64,000 nt of DNA from Anaerolineae bacterium (GCA_034436155.1 DAOTVP010000088.1:6105-70104), one strand, 5' to 3'; counted from the first letter of the stretch, positions 34,743 to 61,435 are shown. Program-made: numbers and translations. Notes: generated from the sequence alone by a model not told the origin.

Positions 34743-35203
34743 TACTCGTCATCGGTTATGGCAACCCGTTACGGCGGGATGATGGTGTTGGGTGGGCGGT
34801 GATAGAAGCCCTCTTAGCCCAAGCACCGCCCAATATGACGTGTTTGGCGGTGCATCAGCTCACGCCTGAACTGAGTGAACAGGTTGCCCATGCCGATGTG
34901 GTCATTTTGATAGATGCCAGTGTCGAAGGCGAAGCGGGTGATATTCACATCACGCCGATTTTGCCGTGTAAAGATGGCACACCCACCCTGACACATCATT
35001 TATCGCCACGCGGTTTATTGGATATGGTGCGATGGTTGTATGATAAAACGCCCTTCACCTTACTCATGACCATCACAGGGGCAGATTTTGGTATCGGCGA
35101 GGGGTTATCCGATGTTGTGCAGGGCAAGGTGGCATCGTTGGCAAATATCATTTTATGGTGTGCATCTCAGTCGTGTTCGACCGATTTATCCAAACCATTA
35201 TAG
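34739..35203 (+). CDS. hoxW: Hydrogenase maturation endopeptidase HoxW
   Basis: ILVIGYGNPLRRDDGVG motif. ATGA overlap with the hoxH stop. Confidence 0.85.
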   Translation: MILVIGYGNPLRRDDGVGWAVIEALLAQAPPNMTCLAVHQLTPELSEQVAHADVVILIDASVEGEAGDIHITPILPCKDGTPTLTHHLSPRGLLDMVRWLYDKTPFTLLMTITGADFGIGEGLSDVVQGKVASLANIILWCASQSCSTDLSKPL

Positions 35204-35211
35204 GATATGTG

Positions 35212-38064
35212 ATGACCATCCGACGCGCTCATATCACCATCAGGGGCATCGTGCAAGGAGTGGGATTTCGCCCGTTCATCCATCGGCTGGCGCATCAAGC
35301 CCAGTTGACGGGGTGGGTGAATAACACCGCGCAAGGGGTGGTCATCGAAATAGAAGGGGATGAGTATCTCATCCAACATGTTTTAGGGCGCATCCGAACC
35401 GAATTGCCACCTCATGCCCATATCGCCGATATGCAGGTGATGTACATCCCCCCTATTGGCGATAGCGATTTCATCATCGAAAAAAGTGCCGATGACGGCG
35501 CAAAAACGGCGTACATCCTCCCCGATTTGGCGATGTGTCCCGATTGCCTGCGCGAAATGACCGACCCGCATAATCGGCGTTATCGCTATCCGTTCATCAA
35601 TTGTACGCATTGCGGACCGCGCTATAGCATCATGACCGATTTGCCCTACGACCGCCCGAATACGACCATGCGCGAGTTTGTCATGTGTGCCGATTGCCAG
35701 CGTGAATATGACGACCCCGCCGATAGGCGTTTTCATGCCCAACCGATAGCCTGCCCCGTGTGCGGACCGCATATCGCGTTATGGGATGCCGATGGACAAA
35801 TTTTAGCCACCCATCACGAGGCGATCATCGCCTGTGCCGATGCGTTACGGGCGGGGAAGATAATCGCCCTCAAGGGCTTGGGCGGGTTTCATCTGCTCGC
35901 CGATGCGACCAATCCAGACGCGATCCACACATTGCGCCAACGCAAACATCGCCCGCATAAACCATTTGCCGTCATGTTTTTGCATATGGATGAGATTCGC
36001 CGTTGGTGTGTGGTGGATGATGTGGCACAGGATTTGCTCACATCCCCCGAAGCGCCGATTGTGTTGTTGGAGAAGCGGATTTATCCCCACGCTCTAACCC
36101 CTGCAGATGAGGAGCATCCCCACGCTCTAACCCCTGCAGATGAGGAGCATCCCCACCCCCTAACCCCCTCCCCACTTCGTGGAGAGGGGGGATGGCATGA
36201 TAATCCACCACATACCCCCCCTTTCTCCATGCAATGGGGAAAGGGGGCAGGGGGGATAGGGGACGATTTACTCGCACCAGACAACCCCACGCTCGGCGTG
36301 ATGCTTCCTTATACACCGCTCCATCACCTGTTGCTATCCGAATGTGGCTTCCCGCTCATCGCCACCAGTGGCAACCGCGCCGATGAGCCGATTTGTACCG
36401 ATGAATACGAGGCGCTCACCCGTCTGCGCGGGATTGCCGATTTGTTTCTGGTGCATAACCGACCCATCCAGCGTCCGATAGATGATTCGGTAGTGCGCGT
36501 CATGGCGGGGCGGGTGATGATGATACGCCGTGCGCGGGGTTATGCGCCACTGCCGATAAAACAACCCCACCCCCTAACCCCCTCCCCAAAAATTGGAGAG
36601 GGGGAACAGCATGATAATTCGTCAAATACTCCCCCTTTCTACATGCAATGGGGAAAGGGGGCAGGGGGGATAGGGGACACGACTTTAGCCGTTGGCGCAC
36701 ACCTCAAAAATGCGGTAGCGATACGGCGCGGGGATGATATTTTCATCAGCCAACATATCGGCGACCTCTCTACCGCAGGCGCACATCATCATTTTGAACA
36801 GACCATCGCCGATTTATCCGCCATGCTCGATGTGCATCCGCAAAAAATTGTGTGCGATGCCCATCCCGATTACGCCTCGACCACCTACGCCCATCAAAGC
36901 GGGTTGCCTATCCGCAAAATTCAGCATCATTACGCCCATGCGTTGGCGTGTTTGGCAGAAAACGGCGTGGAATTGCCCGCGTTGGCGGTCGTCTGGGATG
37001 GCACAGGTTACGGTGATGATGGCACGATTTGGGGCGGTGAATTTTTGCGATTGACCCGTAACAGTTATGAACGGGTGGCGCATGTGCGACCGTTTCCGTT
37101 GATTGGCGGAGATAGCGCCGTGATAGAACCGCGCAAAACGGCGCTTGGTTGGTTGTATAGCTTGCTCGGAGATGCGATTTTTGACGATGAACAATACGCG
37201 CCCGTCCGACAATTCACACCCGACCAACGGCGTGTGTTGCGCCAGATGGTGCAGAAAAAGGTGAACTGTCCGATGACGAGTAGCATGGGGCGCTTGTTCG
37301 ATGCGGTTGCTTCGCTCATGGATGTGTGTCATGTGATGACGCATGAAGCGCAGGCGGCGGTGATGCTCGAATATTTGGCTTCGCAACCCCACCCCCTAGC
37401 GCCGATAAATGGAGAGCGACCCCACCCCCTAGCGCCTATGAATGGAGAGCGACCCCACCCCCTAGCCCCCTCCCCACTTCGTGGAGAGGGGGAACAAAGA
37501 AATTTTTATCCTATGTGGGATGACGAGGCGCTGAAGGGGCTAAAATCTGATATACAGATGTCAATATGTTCAGGTGATAAGGTATCATCACAATCTCAAT
37601 ATGACAATCCAATCGGTGAACACCCCAGCCCCTTGAGTGGGCTTCCAAATTCGATAGCGAGGGGTTTTGAACCCCTCGCGGGGCATCCAACGGCGCAAAC
37701 AAGTCCCCTCTCCATGCAGAGTGATGAGGCGCAAACAAGTCCCCTCTCCATGCAATGGGGAGGGGATTTAGGGGTGGGGTTGCTCACATCGCTCATGGCG
37801 GATATAAACGCGGGCATCCCCAAAACGGTGATAAGCCATAAATTTCATGTTACACTTATAGAGATAATCATCCACACCGCGCAACGCATCGGCGAGAGGC
37901 GCGTTTTGCTCACAGGCGGGTGTTTTTTGAATAAACCCTTGCTCGAAGGCGCGATTATTCGCCTACGCGAGGCGGGATTCATCCCCTATTGGCATTCCCA
38001 AGTCCCGACAGGCGATGGCGGGATATGCTTCGGGCAGGCGGTGGCGTGGATGTTATCATCATGA
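35212..38064 (+). CDS. hypF: [NiFe]-hydrogenase maturation carbamoyltransferase HypF, expanded by three in-frame repeat insertions
   Basis: Acylphosphatase domain (ITIRGIVQGVGFRPF). Two Zn fingers (CPDC...CTHCGPRYS; CADC...CPVCGP). YrdC-like ALKGLGGFHLLADA. Kae1-like C-terminus. Start ATG 35212. About 950 aa, whereas my recollection of typical HypF is roughly 750-800 aa. Confidence 0.9.
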   Translation: MTIRRAHITIRGIVQGVGFRPFIHRLAHQAQLTGWVNNTAQGVVIEIEGDEYLIQHVLGRIRTELPPHAHIADMQVMYIPPIGDSDFIIEKSADDGAKTAYILPDLAMCPDCLREMTDPHNRRYRYPFINCTHCGPRYSIMTDLPYDRPNTTMREFVMCADCQREYDDPADRRFHAQPIACPVCGPHIALWDADGQILATHHEAIIACADALRAGKIIALKGLGGFHLLADATNPDAIHTLRQRKHRPHKPFAVMFLHMDEIRRWCVVDDVAQDLLTSPEAPIVLLEKRIYPHALTPADEEHPHALTPADEEHPHPLTPSPLRGEGGWHDNPPHTPPFSMQWGKGAGGIGDDLLAPDNPTLGVMLPYTPLHHLLLSECGFPLIATSGNRADEPICTDEYEALTRLRGIADLFLVHNRPIQRPIDDSVVRVMAGRVMMIRRARGYAPLPIKQPHPLTPSPKIGEGEQHDNSSNTPPFYMQWGKGAGGIGDTTLAVGAHLKNAVAIRRGDDIFISQHIGDLSTAGAHHHFEQTIADLSAMLDVHPQKIVCDAHPDYASTTYAHQSGLPIRKIQHHYAHALACLAENGVELPALAVVWDGTGYGDDGTIWGGEFLRLTRNSYERVAHVRPFPLIGGDSAVIEPRKTALGWLYSLLGDAIFDDEQYAPVRQFTPDQRRVLRQMVQKKVNCPMTSSMGRLFDAVASLMDVCHVMTHEAQAAVMLEYLASQPHPLAPINGERPHPLAPMNGERPHPLAPSPLRGEGEQRNFYPMWDDEALKGLKSDIQMSICSGDKVSSQSQYDNPIGEHPSPLSGLPNSIARGFEPLAGHPTAQTSPLSMQSDEAQTSPLSMQWGGDLGVGLLTSLMADINAGIPKTVISHKFHVTLIEIIIHTAQRIGERRVLLTGGCFLNKPLLEGAIIRLREAGFIPYWHSQVPTGDGGICFGQAVAWMLSS
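36083..36263 (+). mobile_element. G/C-rich hairpin MITE-like element, copy A, in frame inside hypF; left end triplicated (2 x 33 bp)
   Basis: 33-bp tandem atccccacgctctaacccctgcagatgaggagc at 36083-36115 and 36116-36148. Then a 113-nt core at 36151-36263: CCCCACCCCCTAA..CCCCTCCCCActtcgTGGAGAGGGG..CCCCCTTTCTCCATgcaATGGGGAAAGGGGG..GGGGGGATAGGGGA. Confidence 0.8.
36565..36677 (+). mobile_element. G/C-rich hairpin MITE-like element, copy B, in frame inside hypF
   Basis: 113 nt, colinear with the copy A core. Ends and both hairpin stems are identical; differences are confined to the loops and the central spacer. Confidence 0.8.
37387..37779 (+). mobile_element. Composite 393-nt element (131 codons), copy C, in frame inside hypF
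   Basis: Left end CCCCACCCCCTAG (present three times through a 33-bp tandem duplication, 37387-37452). Right end TAGGGGTGGGG at 37769-37779, an inverted repeat of the left end. Internal hairpins CCCCTCCCCActtcgTGGAGAGGGGG and CCCCTCTCCATgcaATGGGGAGGGG. A 36-bp tandem duplication at 37692-37763. Confidence 0.8.
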
Positions 38065-38093
38065 TATTGGCGGTATATAAAAAGGGATATGAG

Positions 38094-38984
38094 ATGAAAT
38101 ATATAGTTCGACTGATGATTTTATGGCTGGTATTTTTGAGTTTATATAGCACAATCGGGGCGCAATCGGATGAGGCAGAACCAGATACCCATCCCTTATT
38201 CGATATGCTCAGGCGTGTGCCGATTGAATTTGCGAATACCGAAATAAGCTATACCGATTTTCGCGCCGTAGAAGATGCTTTGCCTTATGTGGAACGACCC
38301 GCACTGGGTGAAGTTTTTTATGGTGGGTGGCCGGGATACACACAGCGTTGGTATACCTTTCAGACGAACATCCGTGAGGTAGCTCCAATGGCATTAAGAG
38401 GAGGTGGCGAGATTATATCACAAACGATCGGGTTTGAAATACGCGATATAAATCGCCTATTCACCTTTGGACACCCGCCTAACAATGGCACGATTTGGTC
38501 GGGTGATTTTGATGAAGAGGCTATCCGTACCGCGCATACCGCACGCGGGTATAGCGCCGTCACCATCAATGGTGCCGAAGCATGGTGTTATGAGGGTGAT
38601 TGTTCTATCGGCACTCGTGCCAACCTACAAGAAATCGAGAGAACCAATTTATTTGACTCACGGCTTGGGCGTAAAATTCCATTTGTGATGTGGGATGATA
38701 CCCTCATCAGCACAGAGCATCAATCCATTTTAGAGGATGTTGCCAACCTAACAGAAAACACGTTGTATGATGATGCCGATATTCGCGCACTCGCCCAAGT
38801 CGCCACCGCCCCAGACGGGTTATTGGTCAATTGGTTGTTATGGCGTATGGATATTGCTACTGGCTCTGATATGTCATTGACTACATTAGAACGCGAAGGT
38901 TTAAGCGCCGATACAACGCAATTCAGCACCTATGAATATCAGAATTTGCCACCCTATGATGCGGTTGCTATTGCCGACCGCTAA
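38094..38984 (+). CDS. Secreted hypothetical protein
   Basis: Start ATG 38094 (MKYIVRLMILWLVFLSLYSTIGAQ signal peptide). No recognisable motif. Confidence 0.5.
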   Translation: MKYIVRLMILWLVFLSLYSTIGAQSDEAEPDTHPLFDMLRRVPIEFANTEISYTDFRAVEDALPYVERPALGEVFYGGWPGYTQRWYTFQTNIREVAPMALRGGGEIISQTIGFEIRDINRLFTFGHPPNNGTIWSGDFDEEAIRTAHTARGYSAVTINGAEAWCYEGDCSIGTRANLQEIERTNLFDSRLGRKIPFVMWDDTLISTEHQSILEDVANLTENTLYDDADIRALAQVATAPDGLLVNWLLWRMDIATGSDMSLTTLEREGLSADTTQFSTYEYQNLPPYDAVAIADR

Positions 38985-38996
38985 GAAGGAGACCGT

Positions 38997-39356
38997 ATGG
39001 TGGCATTATTGATGGTGACATATGGGGATGAAGCCACTGCTCAAATTGGCGCGGCGGAACTCTCGGCGCGAGTTTCTAACTTCGCCGATAGAATGCGTAA
39101 TAGGGATAGTGATTCCCTGCAACCGATTTTAGATTTTATCCCTGGCGCGATAGTGAGTCATTCGGTATACGCCAGCGACACGGGGCGGTATGTGGCGATT
39201 GTCCGTATCGAATACGATACACCAACGCTCGAACAGGCGCTCGCATCTCGATCCTCTGAGGATTATTATGCCCCAAATGCCGCCGTCTTTCGGATATTGA
39301 CAGATGCTTTTATAAATCGGGCATTTTATCCCTTATGGACGGTGTGGAATGAATAA
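38997..39356 (+). CDS. Hypothetical protein, in the same frame as the preceding ORF
   Basis: 119 aa. GAAGGAGA RBS 6 nt upstream. Separated from 38094..38984 by a single TAA plus four sense codons. Confidence 0.45.
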   Translation: MVALLMVTYGDEATAQIGAAELSARVSNFADRMRNRDSDSLQPILDFIPGAIVSHSVYASDTGRYVAIVRIEYDTPTLEQALASRSSEDYYAPNAAVFRILTDAFINRAFYPLWTVWNE

Positions 39357-39736: not shown

Positions 39737-40830
39737 TGCGTTATATCGATGAATACCGCGACCCGCAAACCGCGCACGAATACGCCGATTTGTTGGCGAA
39801 AATTACCACCCGCGAGTGGACGATTATGGAGGTGTGTGGCGGACAAACGCACGCCATCCTCAAATTTGGTGTAGATACGCTCCTGCCCGATAAAATCACG
39901 CTGTTACACGGACCGGGCTGTCCGGTGTGTGTGACCCCTGTCGAATTGATTGATAAAGCCATCGAAATCGCCCTCATGCCCAATGTCATCCTGACTTCGT
40001 TTGGCGATATGATGCGCGTGCCAGGGACATCCACCGATTTACTCGCCACCAAAGCGGCGGGTGGCGATGTGCGGATGGTGTATTCGCCGATGGATGCGCT
40101 CAAATTGGCACAACAAAATCCAGATAAACAAGTCGTGTTTTTCGCGGTCGGATTCGAGACAACCATGCCCGCCACCGCCATGACCGTCCACCTCGCAAAG
40201 ACGCAAGGCATCACCAATTTTTCGCTGTTGGTCTCGCATGTCCTCGTCCCGCCCGCAGTCGAGGCGATTCTCTCCGCACCAGACCGCCGTGTGAATGCCT
40301 TCCTTGCCGCGGGGCATGTGTGCGCTGTGATGGGCTATGAGGAATATATCCCCATCGCGCAAAAATATCGCGTGCCATTCGTGGTGACAGGGTTTGAACC
40401 GCTCGACATTTTGCAGGGCATCACCATGTGCGTGGCGCAACTCGAACAGGGCAGGGCAGAGGTGGAGAATCAATATGCCCGCGCCGTCCAACGTGAAGGC
40501 AACACCTCCGCCAAAGCGTTGATGACCCGCGTATTCGCGCCCACGCATCGGCGCTGGCGGGGTATCGGCGAAATCCCCCTGAGCGGTGGCGGATTGAGCG
40601 CCGAGTATGCCGATTTTGATGCCGAAAAACGCTTCGGCTACGCCGTCTATGGGGATGAAACCGTTGGCGAATGCCTGAGTGGGCAGGTGCTACAGGGGTT
40701 TATCAAACCCGACCAATGCCCGGCATTCGGCACGCGCTGTAACCCCGAACATCCGCTTGGCGCGACGATGGTCAGCAGTGAAGGCGCGTGCGCGGCGTAT
40801 TATCGCTATCGGAAGCAAACGGTTGGGTAA
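39736..40830 (+). CDS. hypD: Hydrogenase maturation protein HypD
   Basis: [10 protein letters not shown]..., [14 protein letters not shown] and C-terminal [22 protein letters not shown] motifs. ATG 39736 overlaps the hypC TGA by 1 nt. Confidence 0.92.
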
Positions 40831-40886
40831 CTACTTGTGGTATAATTTTCAGTAACCAATATCGTATGTGAGGAGTAGTTGATTTC

Positions 40887-41975
40887 ATGTATATTCACCG
40901 AATTATTCTGCGCGATGTTCATAATTTTGATGACCTTGACATCACATTTTATGATGATGTTTGGCAAAAACCGCTCAATTCGGTGTTAATCACAGGTCTG
41001 AATGGGTCTGGAAAAACAACTTTGCTACGGATAATGGCTACGCTTTGGTATAACTTTCAGTGGTGGCTCAAACTTGAAAAAGATGGTGGTGTCGCTTATG
41101 TCTCAAGTCGGTATAAATTACATGAAATTGATGTTAAAAATGGTTTGATGGCAATTGAGTTAAGGGAATTTGGAGACGACCAAAATGACTATCATATTCC
41201 ATCTTCACTCTGGTTATTTGTTGCCTCAGATGACGAAAATATGTCACAATTACCTATATATGATAATCCTGAAGTGGGATACATCGGCTTAAAAGGTCGA
41301 GATAATGATTTTAAGATTGAGACTTCACTCGATAAATATTTAATTGAAAATTTAATAACCCAATTAGAAGCGTTACAAGTTGGTGTTACTGGTGTATTTT
41401 ATTTACCAAATATGATGTTTTTTGATACTGTAGACCGAACAATTTTAGAACCACCCGACCAAACACAATTTGAACGACAACCCGAATCTCTTTACAGGTG
41501 GTTTGTCAGTTATAGTAACAGAGATAGAATGAGCACCCATCTGGAAACGATGCTAAAAAATATTAAACTCAGAAATCCATCAAATTTTGAGGATATGATT
41601 AAAAATATTAATCAATTTTTTCAAGGTCAAAAGCAGATAACTGATTTCGATGCCCAATCACGTCTATTAGTGCGCGTAAATAAAACCCACCCTACATATC
41701 ATTATATAGAGGCACTCAGTTCAGGTGAACAACAATGCCTGATTATGATGGTGATGGTATCCCGTTGGTTGATGCCAGGGGGTGTGGTATTGATAGATGA
41801 ACCTGATTTACACCTGCATGTGAGTTTGCAACGGCATTTTATCCATGAACTTGAAAAAATTGTTCACTCGCGCAATGGTCAACTTATTGTGACATCGCAC
41901 TCGCCAGAAATATGGGATGAATTCTCAGAAACCCAAAGACGACGTTTGGGTGTAAAGGATGTCATCAATGGCTAA
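40887..41975 (+). CDS. ABC/SMC-like P-loop ATPase (AAA_15/21-like), AriA/AbiLi-like
   Basis: Walker A GLNGSGKT (K43), signature-like LSSGEQQ, Walker B/D-loop VVLIDEPDLHLH, H-loop TSHSP. AT-rich relative to its flanks. Confidence 0.78.
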   Translation: MYIHRIILRDVHNFDDLDITFYDDVWQKPLNSVLITGLNGSGKTTLLRIMATLWYNFQWWLKLEKDGGVAYVSSRYKLHEIDVKNGLMAIELREFGDDQNDYHIPSSLWLFVASDDENMSQLPIYDNPEVGYIGLKGRDNDFKIETSLDKYLIENLITQLEALQVGVTGVFYLPNMMFFDTVDRTILEPPDQTQFERQPESLYRWFVSYSNRDRMSTHLETMLKNIKLRNPSNFEDMIKNINQFFQGQKQITDFDAQSRLLVRVNKTHPTYHYIEALSSGEQQCLIMMVMVSRWLMPGGVVLIDEPDLHLHVSLQRHFIHELEKIVHSRNGQLIVTSHSPEIWDEFSETQRRRLGVKDVING

Positions 41976-42756
41976 CATTGTTTGGGATGATGTATTAGGG
42001 GAAAAACCTCATGGATTGGCTGTTGAAGGCAAAACCGATAAAGTAATCATCGAGAAATTTCTTGATGCGGGTGGATGGGATAATTGGCGGTCTAAATTAT
42101 CTGTCCATGTCGTGAATAAGCGCGATAAAGTTCTTCAAGAACTCAGTAAGAATGATACGCGAATTTGGGGACTAATCGATAACGATGAAAGATCAACCCG
42201 TGAGATGAGTGACTTACAAGAACAATATTCACGGTTATTGGTGTTGCCACGATGGACAATTGAAAATTATTTTATTGACCCAAGCGAACTATCCCAAATG
42301 CAAATCCCTATCAGTAAAACGCGACTCGATTTTGATAAAATAGATGACTATCTTCATGATGGCATAAAACATGGTGCATTATGGCATACACTTTATGAAC
42401 GAGATGCTTTTCAATTTTGTCGTGGGCATGAAGATGGTTATCCAATGGCAATTTTGAGCAATGTCGAATTTGATGATGCCACCATTGCTACACGACTAAA
42501 TACATGGCAAAGTCACCTCAATGCAACCGATATTATGCCACTTTATCAACAAAAGTTAGCCGAATTTGAACAACATCGGGATGAAAATTACACCAAACAT
42601 ATTCACGGTAAATATTTTTTCTCTCAGGTGGTTGTTCAAAAAGTTCTGAACTCTATCCAACAAAAATCAACCGATTACTGGCTAGAATTACTAACTGAGA
42701 GCATAACTTATTGTCCAGATGACATGAAAGCTCTTCTGCGTCAAATATTATCTTGA
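41959..42756 (+). CDS. DUF4435/TOPRIM-like (OLD-type) putative nuclease, AriB/AbiLii-like
   Basis: VEGKTDKVIIEKF (TOPRIM Glu, E23), GLIDNDE (DxD, D74/D76), WTIENYFI. 17-nt overlap with the ATPase gene. Confidence 0.65.
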   Translation: MSSMANIVWDDVLGEKPHGLAVEGKTDKVIIEKFLDAGGWDNWRSKLSVHVVNKRDKVLQELSKNDTRIWGLIDNDERSTREMSDLQEQYSRLLVLPRWTIENYFIDPSELSQMQIPISKTRLDFDKIDDYLHDGIKHGALWHTLYERDAFQFCRGHEDGYPMAILSNVEFDDATIATRLNTWQSHLNATDIMPLYQQKLAEFEQHRDENYTKHIHGKYFFSQVVVQKVLNSIQQKSTDYWLELLTESITYCPDDMKALLRQILS

Positions 42757-42757
42757 T

Positions 42758-42782
42758 GAGGACACCACTTGGAGATGTCCTC
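42758..42782. terminator. Hairpin between convergent genes (candidate bidirectional terminator)
   Basis: GAGGACA-ccacttggaga-TGTCCTC. No clear U-tract. Confidence 0.35.
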
Positions 42783-42788
42783 TCATAA

Positions 42789-45722
42789 TCACCCCACATT
42801 GACCACCATCAGATAACCCGTTTGGTCTAAGAAATCGGCTAACACGGTCAACAATGCCACCTCATCGGGCGCGGATGTCAGGGTCACGCTCACCTCGCCA
42901 CGATCGGTATGGATGCCGATGCCTTTTTTGAGCGACCAACCCGCCTCGCGGATGAGCCGATTCGCCACCGATAAAATCGCTTGCTGATTCGGATGCGGAT
43001 GCACACTCAACGGGTAGCCCGTTTGTTGCGCCAATTCGTTCATCTCGGCGTGATAGCGCCCGCCTACTTGTGGCGAAATAAATGTTAACACGATGCCATT
43101 CCCCTTGAGCGAGGTTTTATACAACCCCTTATCGCCCAATTTCGCCCGTATCAGACCATAGGCGGCGTTGATCTCCATCTGCTTGCTGGTGATAGGTGCG
43201 TTTGATGGGCTAGGGGGGGCATTAGTCGCAGATGTGCTATTGCCCGTCACCAATTTGAAGCCCGTCAAATCCAGATACATCGCTTTGAGCGAGGCTAAAA
43301 TATCGGGCGTGATGTCGGCAATATCGGCAACCACTTCGCGCCGATCCATGTAATACGATGGCGATTTGACCAACCGCGCCCCTTTGGGCAACAATTCGTG
43401 CAGGGCTTCGCCGAGCGCCTGTTGATTGGTGGCGGGGGTCAGATGCACCTCCCAACCGGTCACCTCTTCGAGCTGGTCAATCAGGTTCATCCATTTATCG
43501 GGTGCGCGTTCTGGAAAATCAAACGTCAAAATGAGCCGTTTGCGATGCGCCTCCATGCCGACTTTTCGCAGTCGTGCTTCTGGCGGGAAGGTCTCTAATG
43601 CGATTTCGCGGGCGCGATTTTGCTCTACGGGTCCGTCTTGCAGGGCATATTTGGGCAATAAGCCGTCTGGTTCGAGTGTCGCCCCGTCTTGTGCCAATGC
43701 CCACACGATTGTCGCCAACGCCTCTAACCGATTCACCCCTTCGGGCAACGGATTGGGCAATAGTTGGTCGGGGATGACGGGCTTGGCATCCGCCACAAGG
43801 CGCTGACGGATATCCAACGGCAACACCGCATCTTGAATGGTCTTGATTTTGGTTGCCAGCGCGTTCAGTTGGCTTTTGAGCGGGACACCTTCGGCGCGTT
43901 CCCATGTGCCGATGACCCACAGGATCGCATCACCCGCATATTGTCGCCCCTTTGCGCCTTGCACTTCTGCCTCGAAACTATCCTCCCCCGCATTCACCAC
44001 CACCGCGATATGCGGACGATTATTCACATCGCGCAACACCACCAATTTGCCGACAATATCGGGATTTGCCAACATGATAGCACGACTGCGATTGGCTTTT
44101 TGGATTTGCGCCTCAGTTCGCACCTGAAACGTATCGTTGCGTCGCCAATCTTGGGTGAAATAGGGGCTATTCGCCAAAACGGAGATGACCTCACTCGCCC
44201 GTGTGCTATCGCCCCACCACATTTGTGCCAATTCGCGGGCGCTGAAAAAATTCCCCGCCTGACCTTTGAGCGATTCCCACAGCGCAAGCGGGTTCAACGC
44301 TTCCTTATTATCGCCCGATTTTATCCGCGCAATGCCCCACGGGCGCTTGGGAAAATTGAAGGTGATGGTCTGACCAATGCGCGGGGTCATGACATGCCGA
44401 CTGCGTTGGCGCAAGCGTGTGGCGAGGCTATGCCGTGCCGATGGATCGCCATGCACCAGCATGATTTCGCTCGCATCCATCGCTTCTGCCACGCTGACCA
44501 ATTCCGCTTCATCGGCGTGTGCCGAGAGCGAATAGGTATCTATCATACAGCGCACGGTGACGGGTTGCCCATCAATTTTGATGACCCCTGAATCTGCACC
44601 ATCGGCACGCGCTTTTATCAACCGTTGGAGCATTTTACCGGGCGCTTCTTCATCCTGATACCCCGTGAGGAAGATGGCATTTTGGGGATCTCCCGCCATT
44701 TTTTTGGCGTAGAGTGCCGATGCCCCGCCTGTGAGCATCCCGCTACTGGCGATAATCACGGCGGGCATCCCATCGTTCAGCATGGCATCGCGTTCTGCGT
44801 TGGATACAATTGCCTTCACTTTTTCGCGGAAAAACAGGTGTTTATCCCCCGCCATTTTCACACTGTTGGGCGGTAATAAATCGGTGAACGTGGCGTATCC
44901 ATTACACACCGAGCGCACCATGCCATCCACATATACAGGCACATCGAGCTGATCGCGATAGGCGAGGATGATTTGCAACACCTCCTGCGCCCGTCCGAGC
45001 GCGAAGGCGGGGATGAGCGCCTTGCCACCACCATCGGTCACGGCTTTGAGCGAGGCGATGATGCGTTTTTCTTCGGCATCGCGGTTGGCGTGCAGTTTTC
45101 CGCCATACGTGCTTTCGAGTACCAGCGCATCGGCTTTGATACGCGGGATTTTGGCGGGGACGACCGCCCGTTGTTGATTCAGCGACAGGTCTCCACTCAT
45201 CACCAGCGTGCCTTCTTCGCTCTCGAATACCAACATCGCCGCACCTGCGATATGCCCCGCGACATGATACGTGACTTGCAAGCCTTCGCCGAGATGAATC
45301 GGTTGGTTAAATTCCACCGTCTGAAAGGCATCCATCAACCGTTGGCTGGCGATTTCATCGAAAATCGGCAATTCGCCTTCTTCTTCGTGCTTCGATTTCA
45401 TGATGCGTTGGGCATCGGCTTGCAAAATGCGCGTCAAGACTTGTGTTGGGCGAGTCGCCAACACAGGGACGTGCGGATACTGTTCCACCACCAACGGCAA
45501 CGCGCCTGTGTGGTCGGTATGGGCATGGGTGACGAGCAGATAATCGAAGCCACCCATCGCCGAAATGGGTTGTAAATCGGGCAATTGGTCATTTTGGATG
45601 CCCCGATTCGTCTTGGGGGAGATGCGGATGCCGACATCCACCAAAATGCGTTTGCCCGCAATTTCGATGAGTGTGCTACTCGCGCCGACTTCATCCGCCC
45701 CGCCGAGAAATGTAATGTTCAT
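42789..45722 (-). CDS. MBL-fold beta-CASP nuclease (RNase J/CPSF-like core) with a C-terminal extension of about 510 aa and unknown function
   Basis: HAHTDH (aa 66-71), ESTYG, SAHAD and VHGD beta-CASP motifs within aa 1-455. aa 460-977 are unassigned and contain an internally duplicated module of about 125 aa. Confidence 0.85.
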   Translation of the reverse strand: MNITFLGGADEVGASSTLIEIAGKRILVDVGIRISPKTNRGIQNDQLPDLQPISAMGGFDYLLVTHAHTDHTGALPLVVEQYPHVPVLATRPTQVLTRILQADAQRIMKSKHEEEGELPIFDEIASQRLMDAFQTVEFNQPIHLGEGLQVTYHVAGHIAGAAMLVFESEEGTLVMSGDLSLNQQRAVVPAKIPRIKADALVLESTYGGKLHANRDAEEKRIIASLKAVTDGGGKALIPAFALGRAQEVLQIILAYRDQLDVPVYVDGMVRSVCNGYATFTDLLPPNSVKMAGDKHLFFREKVKAIVSNAERDAMLNDGMPAVIIASSGMLTGGASALYAKKMAGDPQNAIFLTGYQDEEAPGKMLQRLIKARADGADSGVIKIDGQPVTVRCMIDTYSLSAHADEAELVSVAEAMDASEIMLVHGDPSARHSLATRLRQRSRHVMTPRIGQTITFNFPKRPWGIARIKSGDNKEALNPLALWESLKGQAGNFFSARELAQMWWGDSTRASEVISVLANSPYFTQDWRRNDTFQVRTEAQIQKANRSRAIMLANPDIVGKLVVLRDVNNRPHIAVVVNAGEDSFEAEVQGAKGRQYAGDAILWVIGTWERAEGVPLKSQLNALATKIKTIQDAVLPLDIRQRLVADAKPVIPDQLLPNPLPEGVNRLEALATIVWALAQDGATLEPDGLLPKYALQDGPVEQNRAREIALETFPPEARLRKVGMEAHRKRLILTFDFPERAPDKWMNLIDQLEEVTGWEVHLTPATNQQALGEALHELLPKGARLVKSPSYYMDRREVVADIADITPDILASLKAMYLDLTGFKLVTGNSTSATNAPPSPSNAPITSKQMEINAAYGLIRAKLGDKGLYKTSLKGNGIVLTFISPQVGGRYHAEMNELAQQTGYPLSVHPHPNQQAILSVANRLIREAGWSLKKGIGIHTDRGEVSVTLTSAPDEVALLTVLADFLDQTGYLMVVNVG

Positions 45723-45737
45723 GTGTGGTTATGTTCC

Positions 45738-46070
45738 TTACTGTGATAATAAGTCTGCAATGGCTTGGCGCAGGACAGGAATTTCTGTTTCAATCGTGCG
45801 CCAAACCTGATTGATTTCGATGTCTTCATAATCATGGGTGATAACATCCCGAAACCCTGCGATATTGCGCCATGGGATATGCGGGTGGTTATCTGTAAAT
45901 TCTTTGCCTAATCGTTTGACGATTTCGCCAAGAATAGTAAAATTTCTGAGAACGGCATCTTGTGCCATTTCGGATGCAAAAAATACTTCTCGCCCATCTT
46001 GCGTGTATCGAATAATTTTATCAATGTGGGTGAGTAAATCATTCAAATACCCGCGCTGAATATCGTTCAT
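45738..46070 (-). CDS. hepT: HepT-like (DUF86, HEPN) RNase toxin
   Basis: 110 aa. RX4H motif FRDVITHDY, GEIVKRL helix. Confidence 0.82.
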   Translation of the reverse strand: MNDIQRGYLNDLLTHIDKIIRYTQDGREVFFASEMAQDAVLRNFTILGEIVKRLGKEFTDNHPHIPWRNIAGFRDVITHDYEDIEINQVWRTIETEIPVLRQAIADLLSQ

Positions 46071-46366
46071 AATGAGATTGCATCCTTGAGGATGTAGGGC
46101 GATAAATAGGGTTTAATCGCACGGTCACTAACCACATCTACAGCGCAATGGAGCAAATCTTGTAAATCTATGAGCAACCCTGCGCGGTCAAGTAGACTGG
46201 TCTGATTGTTGAACGCGACTAAAAAATCCACATCGCTATTTTCGGTGGCTTCACCTCTGGCGACACTGCCGAAAATGCGGACGTTGGTCGCGCCATGTTT
46301 TTGGGCAATCTGTAAAATTTGGTCGCGCATGGCGCGGAGTTGATTGAGTGTGTAGGGCATAATCAT
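46067..46366 (-). CDS. mntA: MNT-like nucleotidyltransferase antitoxin
   Basis: 99 aa. GSVARGEATENSDVDFLV (GSxxRG...DxD). ATGA overlap with hepT. Confidence 0.82.
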   Translation of the reverse strand: MIMPYTLNQLRAMRDQILQIAQKHGATNVRIFGSVARGEATENSDVDFLVAFNNQTSLLDRAGLLIDLQDLLHCAVDVVSDRAIKPYLSPYILKDAISL

Positions 46367-46640: not shown

Positions 46641-46874
46641 TTGCATTTATTGGGCAAAGACGACTTATTTCATCTGAATTATGCTACCCAAATGGGATGT
46701 GTATTATGTACTTATGATAGCGACTATTTGCAATTGGCATCACAAGGTATTGAACATGCGGGTGTTGTTTTTGACGTGTGGGATAAACATCGTGTGGGTG
46801 ATTGGATAAAAGTGCTCTCATTTATCTATGAGATTTTGATACCTGATGATATGCGGAATCGTGTTGAATATTGA
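46641..46874 (+). pseudogene. DUF5615-type PIN-like protein, N-terminally truncated
   Basis: ...GKDDLFHLNYATQMGCVLCTYDSDYLQLASQGIEHAGVVF fits the DUF5615 C-terminal half. In-frame TGA at 46602-46604 and no ATG for the missing N-terminus. Confidence 0.4.
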
Positions 46875-59938: not shown

Positions 59939-61435
59939 TTATCCCTCGAATAGCGCACGCAACGCACCTTTATCCACCTTGCCTGTGCTATTCAGGGGTA
60001 AAGTGGGCAGTATGCGCCAACGGCGCGGGATTTTGTAGCCCGCCAAGTGTTGCCGTAAAGCCGCTTGCAGGTGGGGTATATCCACCTCGCCCACCAGCGC
60101 ACACGCCACGATCTGCCCCCATTCGGGGTCGGGGATGCCCACCACCGCTACATCCGCCACGCCCGAAAATTGGCGCAACACCGCCTCAATTTCGGCGGGA
60201 TATACATTTTCGCCACCCGTCACGATGAGGTCGCTCCGCCGTTGGATGACCCACAGGTCGCCGTCACGATCCACATAACCCATATCGCCCGTGAATAATT
60301 CGCCATCCCGTATCGTTTTGGCAGTGGATGCGTCATCGTGATAATACCCCGCCATAACGGTCTTTCCGCGCACGGCAATTTCGCCGATCGTCCCCGTTGG
60401 GCAAGTGTTCTCGTGTTCGTCTACGATGCGAATGGTGATGCCGTTCATCGGTTTGCCCACACTGGCGGGTTTGCGATAGGTCATATCGGGCGTGGCGGTA
60501 CACACTTGCGAACTGGCTTCGGTCAATCCGTAGGTGGTGGCGACAGGCAAGCGAAAATCGGCACACCGCGCCATCAGCCGCTCATCCGCCGCGGCACCAC
60601 CGAGCAAAATCAGCCGTAGCGATGGAGTCCACGCCCTCACATCCCGCTCCAACAACCGATACAACATGGTCGGCACGAGCGAAATCAGCGTAATCGGGCG
60701 GGTGCATAGGGCATGATACACGCTATCGACATCAAAGCGCGGGAATAACGAGACGGTCGCGCCTAGCATAAAACAGCGCACGAAAATCGATAACCCGCCG
60801 ATATGATACAACGGCAACACGCATAGCCAATGATCATCAGCCGTCATGTTCAGACGTTCATGCGAGGCGACGGCGTTGGCGATGAGGTTATCGTGCGTGA
60901 GCATCGCGCCTTTCGGTTTGCCCGATGTGCCAGATGTGAACATGATGCACCCCACCCCTAAATCCTGCACGGAGAGGGGGCTGGTTTGCGTCCCCACCCC
61001 TAAATCCCCTCCCCATTGCATGGAGAGGGGACTTTTTTGCTCCCCCTTTCTCCATGCAATGGGGAAAGGGGGCTGGGGGGATAGGGGAAACCCATACACC
61101 GCCACATCCACATCTGGCACGGGCATGTCATCGGCATGTATCAGACAGGTCGCGCCCGCAAATTCCACCTGATAGCGGATTTCATCCCCCGTCAGGCGCG
61201 TATTGAGTGGCAACGGAATCGCGCCCAATTCCCACAAGGCGATAATCATCCGCACATACACGGGGTGATTATGCGCTAAAATTGCCACTACATCCCCGTT
61301 TTGGATACCCCACTCACGCAATTGCGCCCTGTCATGCTGGATTGCCTCGCGTAATTGGGCGTAGGTATACGTCCCGTGTGGGGTGATGAGGGCGGGTTTA
61401 TTTTGCGTGGCGCGGGTTAGATATGGGTAGAGCAT
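59939..61435 (-). CDS. AMP-dependent synthetase/ligase (MenE-like acyl-CoA ligase) carrying an in-frame repeat insertion
   Basis: FTSGTSGKPKGA, LPLYHIGGL, TYGLTE, GDMGYVDRDGDLWVIQRRSDLIVTGGENVYP, NSTGKVDK. About 50 extra residues just before the P-loop. Confidence 0.85.
   Translation of the reverse strand: MLYPYLTRATQNKPALITPHGTYTYAQLREAIQHDRAQLREWGIQNGDVVAILAHNHPVYVRMIIALWELGAIPLPLNTRLTGDEIRYQVEFAGATCLIHADDMPVPDVDVAVYGFPLSPQPPFPIAWRKGEQKSPLSMQWGGDLGVGTQTSPLSVQDLGVGCIMFTSGTSGKPKGAMLTHDNLIANAVASHERLNMTADDHWLCVLPLYHIGGLSIFVRCFMLGATVSLFPRFDVDSVYHALCTRPITLISLVPTMLYRLLERDVRAWTPSLRLILLGGAAADERLMARCADFRLPVATTYGLTEASSQVCTATPDMTYRKPASVGKPMNGITIRIVDEHENTCPTGTIGEIAVRGKTVMAGYYHDDASTAKTIRDGELFTGDMGYVDRDGDLWVIQRRSDLIVTGGENVYPAEIEAVLRQFSGVADVAVVGIPDPEWGQIVACALVGEVDIPHLQAALRQHLAGYKIPRRWRILPTLPLNSTGKVDKGALRALFEG
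60950..61088 (+). mobile_element. G/C-rich hairpin MITE-like element, copy D, in frame inside the ligase gene (element orientation antisense to the gene)
   Basis: CCCCACCCCTAAATCC (x2, at 60950 and 60992), CCCCTCCCCATtgcATGGAGAGGGG, CCCCCTTTCTCCATgcaATGGGGAAAGGGGG, GGGGGGATAGGGGA. Confidence 0.8.

Follow-up and report, generated by a model that had tools for sequence, protein, structure and literature searches.

The question raised by positions 40831-42788 of a 64,000-nucleotide stretch of DNA from an Anaerolineae bacterium (Chloroflexota) is what is encoded by two overlapping, AT-rich open reading frames (ORFs) lying between hypD and a convergent gene for a β-CASP metallo-β-lactamase. The whole stretch is called the window here, and positions are counted from its start. 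An initial annotation, made from the sequence alone, read ORF1 and ORF2 as a PARIS-type ABC ATPase with a TOPRIM partner, and this reading is borne out by the Pfam families AAA_21 and AAA_15, the PADLOC model of AriB, the predicted fold and a family profile that reaches AriB in the PDB. With a probability of roughly 0.7, the pair is a divergent PARIS-type (OLD class 4) anti-phage module of a compact subgroup, the steps of its mechanism being drawn by homology from Escherichia coli PARIS.

About 5% of genomes carry PARIS, a defence family that has been well described. One more PARIS in a metagenome-assembled genome (MAG) of the Chloroflexota is unsurprising; its architecture is familiar and the compact form occurs widely. 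The locus has modest value in that its subgroup includes a BREX-embedded Salmonella system and is predicted to lack the coiled-coil sensing platform of the prototype. In addition, alleles of the pair standing beside one conserved β-CASP gene form a natural experiment, in which 212 central residues of the ATPase mark the likely specificity determinant. The parts of the pair are as follows.

40887..41975, + strand: ORF1, 362 amino acids, an AriA-like ABC ATPase of the AAA_15/AAA_21 (OLD-ABC) type
40995..41018, + strand: Walker A (P-loop) GLNGSGKT, ORF1 residues 37-44 with K43; aligns to AriA GKNGAGKST
41055..41690, + strand: hypervariable central ATPase module, ORF1 residues 57-268; mosaic relative to the closest relative, locus L008
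41715..41735, + strand: ABC signature LSSGEQQ, ORF1 residues 277-283; aligns to AriA LSSGERQ
41784..41819, + strand: Walker B and D-loop VVLIDEPDLHLH, ORF1 residues 300-311 with D304 and E305; aligns to AriA IVLIDEPEISLH
41892..41906, + strand: H-loop TSHSP, ORF1 residues 336-340; H338 is invariant in 62 homologs; aligns to AriA CTHSP
41968..42756, + strand: ORF2, 262 amino acids, a predicted AriB-like TOPRIM (divergent DUF4435) nuclease, overlapping ORF1 by 8 nucleotides
42022..42039, + strand: TOPRIM motif 1 VEGKTD; E20 and D24 are both invariant in 87 relatives
42175..42189, + strand: TOPRIM motif 2 IDNDE; D71 is invariant and D73 is kept in at least 90% of the 87 relatives
42256..42270, + strand: TOPRIM motif 3 TIENY; at least 90% of the 87 relatives have E99
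42598..42612, + strand: HIHGK motif in the C-terminal helical domain; H211, H213, G214 and K215 are invariant in 11 close homologs

ORF1 matched Pfam AAA_21 (4.9e-21, 76.5 bits) and AAA_15 (2.6e-19, 70.5 bits) well above the cut-offs. Among PADLOC models it matched AriA (4e-24), PtuA (6.4e-24), AbiLi (7.7e-19) and Mad3 (7.5e-18). Its top sequence relative in the PDB was AriA of PARIS (chains 8ux9 and 8v45, 3.3e-12), with the signature, Walker B and H-loop aligned. A 62-sequence ORF1 profile run against the PDB found PtuA of Ec83 (4.2e-21, full-length alignment) and AriA (3.8e-20), and both the sequence and the profile search also matched OLD 6p74. All the motifs quoted in the initial annotation lie where it had placed them in the two ORFs, and those of the ATPase are strongly conserved: in the 62 homologs G37, N39, G40, G42 and K43 of Walker A, S278, G280 and E281 of the signature, and D304, P306, D307, L308 and H311 of the Walker B/D-loop segment are invariant. 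The residues that define a competent ABC ATPase in AriA (K39, the signature, D392/E393 and the H-loop) have aligned counterparts in ORF1 at K43, S278, D304/E305 and H338; D392 and E393, which lie in IVLIDEPEISLH, are needed for ATP hydrolysis by AriA (PMC10802264). The AlphaFold2 (AF2) model of ORF1 has a predicted local distance difference test score (pLDDT) of 89.6 and a predicted template modelling score (pTM) of 0.90. In a Foldseek search with this model, PtuA structures came first (1e-14, template modelling (TM) score 0.5-0.6) and AriA lower (5.5e-11). Taken alone, the ATPase places the pair only in the defence-type OLD-ABC (AAA_15/21) class and supplies no system name; it is therefore ORF2 that decides the assignment.

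ORF2 matched the PADLOC AriB model PDLC02983 (4.9e-9, 34.6 bits, profile positions 7-231 of 236), and its sole further PADLOC match was AriAB. DUF4435 was recognized in 4 of 10 close homologs and DUF3226 in 6. An exhaustive profile search with ORF2 recovered 380 relatives from 1.84 billion cluster representatives, of which 87 full-length sequences were used. PADLOC AriB matched 83 of these (best 3.5e-24), Pfam DUF4435 32 (best 1.9e-11) and Pfam OLD-like_TOPRIM 16. The profile of the 87 members reached AriB in the PDB (8ux9_A, 1.5e-5), its sole significant match there (OLD 0.14, RNase M5 0.38). In the alignment VEGxxD falls on AriB VEGRHD, DxD on DRE, and ENYF..P on LENYFFNP, so that E20, D24, D71, D73 and E99 of ORF2 pair one-to-one with E26, D30, D88, E90 and E122 of AriB. 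These five are defined as the catalytic residues and metal site of AriB (PMC11464382, PMC10802264), and defence is abolished by the substitutions E26A (PMC11464382) and E90A (PMC10802264). The alignment ends at AriB residue 183; K215 of the HIHGK motif is kept in at least 90% of the 87 relatives. Structure comparison gave the same ranking. With the AF2 model of ORF2 (pLDDT 85.7, pTM 0.84), the top two Foldseek matches in the PDB were AriB chains 8v46_D and 8ux9_A (probability 1.0, E 4e-4, TM 0.52), followed by the TOPRIM regions of class 2 OLD proteins (6nk8, 6njx) and Thermus OLD. Going by the moderate TM of the model, the domain arrangement or the C-terminal domain of ORF2 may differ from that of AriB.

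The original detection rule for PARIS asks for adjacent, co-oriented genes, with an ATPase matching AAA_15 (at least 32 bits) or AAA_21 (at least 27 bits) followed by a DUF4435 protein (at least 27 bits; Rousset et al. 2022, PMC9122126). The genes here are adjacent and co-oriented, and ORF1 exceeds both ATPase limits. For the DUF4435 part, the 34.6 bits of ORF2 were scored on the PADLOC AriB model and Pfam PF14491 gave nothing at E ≤ 1. Of the Pfam matches foreseen in the initial annotation, AAA_21 and AAA_15 were thus found; DUF4435 missed ORF2 itself and matched the 32 relatives mentioned above.

The ATPase is clearly smaller than AriA (362 versus 464 amino acids), the segment from Walker A to Walker B being shorter by about 85 residues. 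In the AF2 model its central part consists of β-strands (residues 87-146) and helices of 16 (150-165) and 24 residues (219-242). AriA carries a four-helix coiled-coil bundle that provides the hexamer interface and the Ocr site (PMC10802264). ORF1 is predicted to be without this bundle, and the remark in the initial annotation that the ATPase is small and free of a long coiled coil agrees with a model that shows only short helices. The suggestion made there of a distinct minimal subtype holds as far as compactness goes; the compact form is not new, being that of a large family that includes ariA/ariB of Salmonella BREX. At least 236 homologs of ORF1 were found at E ≤ 1e-10, with a median length of 356 amino acids and just one of 400 or more. 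A length of about 360 amino acids is a family trait that spans Chloroflexota and Gammaproteobacteria. In every fetched locus the short ATPase gene is co-oriented with, and abuts, an ORF2 homolog, and it abuts the nuclease gene in 16 of 17 evaluable metagenome loci, from hosts with a GC content of 0.45-0.68.

In annotated collections, the only full-length relatives of ORF1 were copies in type I BREX operons, 30-34% identical over 96-100% of ORF1. A homologous pair lies between pglX and pglZ in the type I BREX of Yersinia enterocolitica, in Salmonella Infantis SARB27 (StySA locus tags STM4491-4498), on plasmid pA of Oceanisphaera, whose partner gene carries the annotation 'DUF4435 domain-containing protein', and on four metagenome contigs. 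The Yersinia partner matched PADLOC AriB at 1.2e-20, although it is only 27% identical to ORF2. An accessory insertion of an ATPase and a DUF4435 protein is how the Salmonella pair has been described (PMC9009780). It is now named PARIS ariA/ariB (PMC11341690), and PMC12839542 likewise refers to the BREX pairs as PARIS; the compact 'short AriA' subgroup thus already has named, functionally silent members in Salmonella BREX. The BREX pairs (Salmonella Typhimurium/Infantis STM4493/STM4494, Y. enterocolitica, Oceanisphaera pA) are in the size class of the window pair, with ATPases of 353-365 and partners of 268-271 amino acids, and share its overlapping start and stop codons. In contrast to the window pair, which has no BREX genes beside it, they lie inside a BREX operon, belong to Gammaproteobacteria and show a much smaller GC offset (0.43-0.45 versus 0.47). 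BREX-embedded OLD-ABC/TOPRIM modules have been viewed as back-up effectors (PMC12839542). Between the BREX loci L063, L064 and L066 and that of Yersinia (L012), PglZ and BrxL are 92-99% identical, PglX 55-72% and the embedded short ATPase 66-88%. Since the ATPase falls so far below PglZ and BrxL, it is fast-varying in the BREX context too.

In its own lineage the pair is best seen against the neighbouring gene with which it converges.

42789..45722, - strand: β-CASP metallo-β-lactamase gene, 977 amino acids, with Pfam Lactamase_B, Beta-Casp and RMMBL; context of the pair and not a component

A sub-clade of Anaerolineae was defined by possession of a 977-residue β-CASP protein at least 78% identical to that of the window. 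Among seven pair-bearing genomes this protein is 74-98% identical (78-95% to the window copy) and its gene has a GC content of 0.51-0.55; across MAGs of Anaerolineae, Aggregatilineales and Phototrophicaceae identity ranges from 55 to 95%. The pair is directly convergent to the β-CASP gene in the window and at loci L003, L005, L007, L009, L010 and L033, and at L008 it lies 2 kb away. On its other side the neighbour is hypD in the window and at L008 (a contig that begins inside the 3' end of hypD), Ala_racemase_N at L005 and L010, and an epimerase at L003. In 11 more distant Anaerolineae the β-CASP gene is kept (55-66% identity, full flanks) and the pair is missing, its equivalent site being occupied by unrelated ordinary genes (an adhesin, an Lhr helicase, transporters and others). 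The idea that other Anaerolineae use the site downstream of the β-CASP gene as a general hotspot for defence genes was accordingly rejected. Conversely, no β-CASP gene neighbours the pair at L006, in the BREX loci or in a further 16 metagenome contexts. As each is found without the other, the β-CASP gene is an anchor for the pair and not a partner.

Throughout the sub-clade the pair stays AT-rich (GC 0.33-0.40) next to its β-CASP neighbour. In the comparison of synteny put forward in the initial annotation, the pair recurs beside the same β-CASP/HepT/MNT block. As to the proposal of horizontal acquisition, the composition is foreign, but there was no recent insertion behind hypD. The pair is a long-term, highly polymorphic and persistently AT-rich resident at a fixed site in one Anaerolineae sub-clade. 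That it sits where hypE usually follows hypD proved incidental. No hypE-type C-terminus (PR[IV]C-stop) is encoded across the window and the left neighbour varies between sub-clades, and displacement of hypE was dropped as an explanation.

The polymorphism of the pair far exceeds that of its neighbours, alleles being 40-58% identical beside neighbours that are 83-98% identical. Between the window and L008 the β-CASP proteins are 95% identical, the ATPases 54% and the nucleases 87%; the corresponding values are 98, 51 and 43% for L009 and L005, and 91, 44 and 40% for L003 and L007. Similarities of ATPase and nuclease disagree. By its ATPase the window is nearest to L009 (66%) and L010 (64%), yet the nucleases of those two loci share only 41% and 40% identity with ORF2, to which the nuclease of L008 is nearest.

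Comparison with L008 showed where the ATPase gene is mosaic. In a sliding window, DNA identity was 82-95% over the end of hypD, the leader and the first 40 or so codons, dropped to 37-51% over approximately 41055-41600, and was 87-95% over the stretch that starts near 41690 and ends with the ORF2 stop. At the protein level the N-lobe (residues 1-56) is 89% identical, the centre (57-268) 28%, the C-lobe (269-362) 90% and ORF2 87%. The nucleotide background between the two genomes is 91.4% for the β-CASP gene and 88.0% for ORF2. From these values it follows that the central module alone was replaced between the window and L008. Its nearest relatives are the centres of L009 and L010 (56-57% identical); no donor was found, the best match in a collection of 5.8 billion proteins being 57%. 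Family-wide, the least-conserved block is residues 61-160, with a top-residue frequency of 0.23-0.40 compared with 0.65-0.83 in the ATPase core.

The insertion and coiled-coil domains of AriA bind the trigger (PMC11464382, PMC10802264). Residues 57-268 of ORF1 sit, as these domains do, between Walker A and the signature motif, which suggests that they are the trigger-sensing region. The regions of AriA that contact the trigger are poorly conserved (PMC11464382), which fits the variable central block. The mosaic seen here is harder to square with the report that ariA and ariB co-evolve and are not often swapped (PMC11464382). The central module behaves as an exchangeable cassette and is likely to determine specificity.

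The closest well-understood system is PARIS of the E. coli B185 P4 satellite (8UX9, 8V45-8V49; OLD class 4). It has the same gene order, an ABC ATPase and then a TOPRIM/DUF4435 protein; the ATPase motifs, the five acidic TOPRIM residues and ENYF..P align, ORF2 resembles AriB most closely in fold, and the ATPase is likewise variable between Walker A and the signature, the site of the trigger-binding insertions of AriA. The differences are that ORF1 is shorter than AriA, with only short helices predicted at the position of the bundle, that ORF2 (262 amino acids, against about 306-316 for AriB) is below the Pfam DUF4435 threshold, and that the window ATPase gene is internally mosaic. Furthermore, the E. 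coli system is carried by a P4 satellite, whereas the window pair is chromosomal, with no satellite or prophage context.

By analogy with E. coli PARIS, ORF2 would be kept inactive, as a monomer, by ATP-bound dimers of ORF1. Binding of a phage protein to the central module (residues 57-268) might then release ORF2, and the freed nuclease would be expected to dimerize and to cleave host RNA, most likely one or more tRNAs, by a two-metal reaction. Such cleavage would stop translation and so abort the infection. The AriA6:AriB3 propeller and the recognition of Ocr probably do not carry over, because ORF1 is predicted to lack the coiled-coil bundle, and the trigger is probably something else. A broader proposal is possible but, on balance, doubtful: that systems with a short AriA of about 360 amino acids are a mechanistically distinct PARIS subtype, with no propeller or Ocr sensing and with a compact central module that reads out phage proteins and is exchanged as a cassette at a fixed chromosomal site. 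If so, a bacterial population would keep a series of alleles with different trigger specificities, all built on the same chassis of ATPase core and nuclease, and the Salmonella BREX member would be inert because the wrong triggers were tried.

Several results weigh against the assignment to PARIS. ORF2 has no match to the current Pfam DUF4435 family (PF14491) even at E ≤ 1. Searches of PDB sequences with ORF2 alone and with an 11-member profile found nothing, nor did the Yersinia partner, used alone as a bridge, match AriB in the PDB. Identity of ORF2 to AriB is only 14-15%, with the TM of 0.52 given above. The ATPase is roughly as near to PtuA of Septu and retrons as to AriA, with PtuA ranking first by fold, and about 85-100 residues are missing from ORF1 where AriA carries its coiled-coil bundle, so that the mode of activation cannot be transferred without change. 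The Salmonella BREX ariA/ariB, the sole experimentally examined member of the short subgroup, was inactive against all tested phages and gave no response to Ocr or Gp5 (PMC11341690). Finally, IMG/VR viral contigs and BFVD held no homologs of the pair, and phage or satellite carriage of the family was rejected on these data; the only direct or inverted repeats at the ends of the pair were short matches at the level of chance, and there is no integrase in its neighbourhood in the window.

One alternative to a PARIS-type module is that the pair is a split OLD-type DNase, which would nick or degrade phage or host DNA, as class 1 and 2 OLD proteins and GajA do, and not tRNA. Those proteins share the two-metal TOPRIM nuclease fold and the ATPase family with the window pair; class 2 OLD (6nk8, 6njx) and Thermus OLD are the next fold matches of ORF2 after AriB, OLD-like_TOPRIM is found in 16 of the 87 relatives and ORF1 matches OLD 6p74. 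However, they score much more weakly than AriB, which is clearly first by fold and the sole significant match of the family profile in the PDB, and the PADLOC matches of ORF2 are AriB and AriAB only. In class 1/2 OLD and Gabija, moreover, ATPase and TOPRIM form one polypeptide, whereas here there are two ORFs with a conserved stop-start overlap. AriB itself is described as nearer to RNase M5 and as being without the lysine that OLD needs for DNA cleavage (PMC10802264). A DNase is unlikely on this balance. Membership of another system with an AAA_15/21 ATPase (Septu PtuAB, AbiL, MADS Mad3-4 or Gabija) is a good deal less probable still. ORF1 does match PtuA, AbiLi and Mad3 nearly as well as AriA, and the PtuA structures that head its fold search (8EE4, 8SUX, 9E90, 9N69) belong to the same class of defence ATPase. 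But it is the partner gene that decides the system, and on this ground Septu, AbiL, MADS and Gabija were rejected. PtuA, which at 465-550 amino acids is longer than ORF1, is partnered by an HNH nuclease, PtuB, whether or not a retron is present. ORF2 belongs to the TOPRIM proteins and has no HNH match, and no HNH, reverse transcriptase or non-coding RNA gene lies at the window pair. The likeness to AbiL noted in the initial annotation was not supported, as neither ORF2 (PADLOC, E ≤ 1) nor any of the 87 relatives matches AbiLii. Mad4 was matched by only one of the 87 relatives (3e-4), ORF2 has no match to the helicase GajB, and neither a helicase nor any further system gene is adjacent.

The pair might also have no part in phage defence, being either a selfish addiction module of the toxin-antitoxin sort, maintained through post-segregational killing, or a relic without activity that merely drifts: PARIS formally behaves as a type II toxin-antitoxin pair (PMC10802264), the short-form Salmonella pair shows no anti-phage activity (PMC11341690) and the locus stands beside another toxin-antitoxin pair, HepT/MNT. 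Yet both ORFs are intact in all alleles despite 40-58% divergence, and the catalytic residues of ATPase and TOPRIM vary little or not at all, a pattern that speaks for purifying selection on activity. A variable centre on a conserved core is, besides, the pattern expected of an arms-race sensor, and repeated embedding in BREX operons argues for defence, so that an addiction module or relic is improbable. Least credible is a housekeeping RNA-processing pair tied to the β-CASP (RNase J/CPSF-like) gene. It would account for the pair abutting that gene in six distinct genomes, standing 2 kb away in a seventh and abutting it again at L033, and the TOPRIM fold does include RNase M5, a secondary match of ORF2, though RNase M5 has no ATPase partner. 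Against this, pair and β-CASP gene are convergent and not co-transcribed, the β-CASP gene lacks the pair in at least 11 other Anaerolineae while the pair lacks the β-CASP gene at L006, in BREX and in the 16 metagenome contexts, and an AT-rich, hypervariable pair contrasts with a host-like, conserved β-CASP gene. Distribution largely refutes the housekeeping link, and a PARIS-type module remains the preferred account of the locus.

The composition of the pair sets it apart from its surroundings. The sharp fall in GC after hypD, first noted from counts by hand, was confirmed in 300-nucleotide windows and in GC at third codon positions (GC3). The GC content is 0.372 for the pair, compared with 0.570 for hypD, 0.553 for the β-CASP gene and 0.506 for the entire window. 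In the 300-nucleotide windows it goes from 0.62 at 40500-40799 to 0.33-0.42 within the pair and 0.54 past 42750. GC3 is 0.31 in ORF1 and 0.29 in ORF2. The 37 long coding stretches measured across the window have a GC3 of 0.57 ± 0.08; the two ORFs rank at the bottom, and the next-lowest stretch has 0.46. At the base composition of the pair, stop-free runs of 362 and 262 codons have chance probabilities of 2e-12 and 3.5e-9, respectively. The junctions comprise the following elements.

40831..40886, + strand: leader, 56 nucleotides from the hypD stop to ORF1, containing TGGTATAAT and a GAGGAG Shine-Dalgarno
40838-40846, + strand: extended -10-like element TGGTATAAT, a putative promoter as read from the sequence
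40870-40875, + strand: Shine-Dalgarno GAGGAG, read from the sequence, coordinates verified
42757..42788, no strand assigned: spacer of 32 nucleotides with a weak hairpin, from the ORF2 stop to the stop of the convergent β-CASP gene

L008, the closest relative, shares the leader including TGGTATAAT: an ungapped comparison that starts at window position 40781 has 94 matches in 100 positions. A scan for consensus promoters did not list the TGGTATAAT element, because a -35 is missing. That there are two overlapping ORFs was correctly recognized in the initial annotation; the start of ORF2, taken there as the ATG at 41959 (265 amino acids), is most likely 41968. The public gene call also gives 262 amino acids from 41968, 7 of the 9 homologous loci keep the ATGNNTAA/TGA start-stop overlap of 8 nucleotides, and L008 does not share the ATG at 41959. 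The overlap is therefore 8 nucleotides and not 17, and ORF1 and ORF2 are translationally coupled. A hairpin at the end of the pair does exist, as had been noticed (42757-42786, free energy -13.1 kcal/mol). It is weak (z -1.8), since 9 of 200 shuffles fold equally well, has no T-tract and was not called by a terminator scan; at homologous loci, where the spacers are 15-16 nucleotides, it is missing. A role as terminator was rejected for a structure so weak and unconserved.

Beyond the pair, the β-CASP protein has a C-terminal extension of about 500 amino acids with no match to any listed Pfam family. Right after its gene comes a HepT-like/MNT toxin-antitoxin pair (45738-46366, - strand), which is 79-87% identical at L003 and L005. 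HepT/MNT is the next element in most loci of the sub-clade, and L008 has a different HepT/MNT pair in place of that of the window. Genes for TIR-domain proteins lie near the pair and the β-CASP/HepT/MNT block at L003 (14613-17111), L005 (2560-3885 and 11643-14018) and L010 (1686-2606). They encode TIR-TPR proteins (791-832 amino acids) and TIR_2 proteins with or without CBS. Because these genes are close to the pair, the neighbourhood is a defence island in these three relatives. At the position of the TIR genes the window has a tyrosine-phosphatase-like gene.

A second small AT-rich islet, a 77-amino-acid ORF (46641-46874, + strand; GC 0.37, GC3 0.32) with no Pfam match on record, may be a remnant of another mobile or toxin-antitoxin gene. 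Within the hydrogenase maturation cluster, two ORFs (331 and 119 amino acids; 37989-39356, + strand) between hypF and hypC have a GC content of 0.47-0.49 and no Pfam match. The hypF gene (35155..38064) contains an in-frame repeat of about 106-117 nucleotides at 36085-36264, 36562-36678, 37387-37492 and 37745-37774, the translation of which reads ...HPLTPSPLRGEGG...PPFSMQWGKGAGGIGD.... Its 27-nucleotide core occurs again at 61052-61078, in another ORF and on the opposite strand, which makes 3 matches against 0 expected by chance, and the repeat looks like a small dispersed element that is tolerated in coding sequence.

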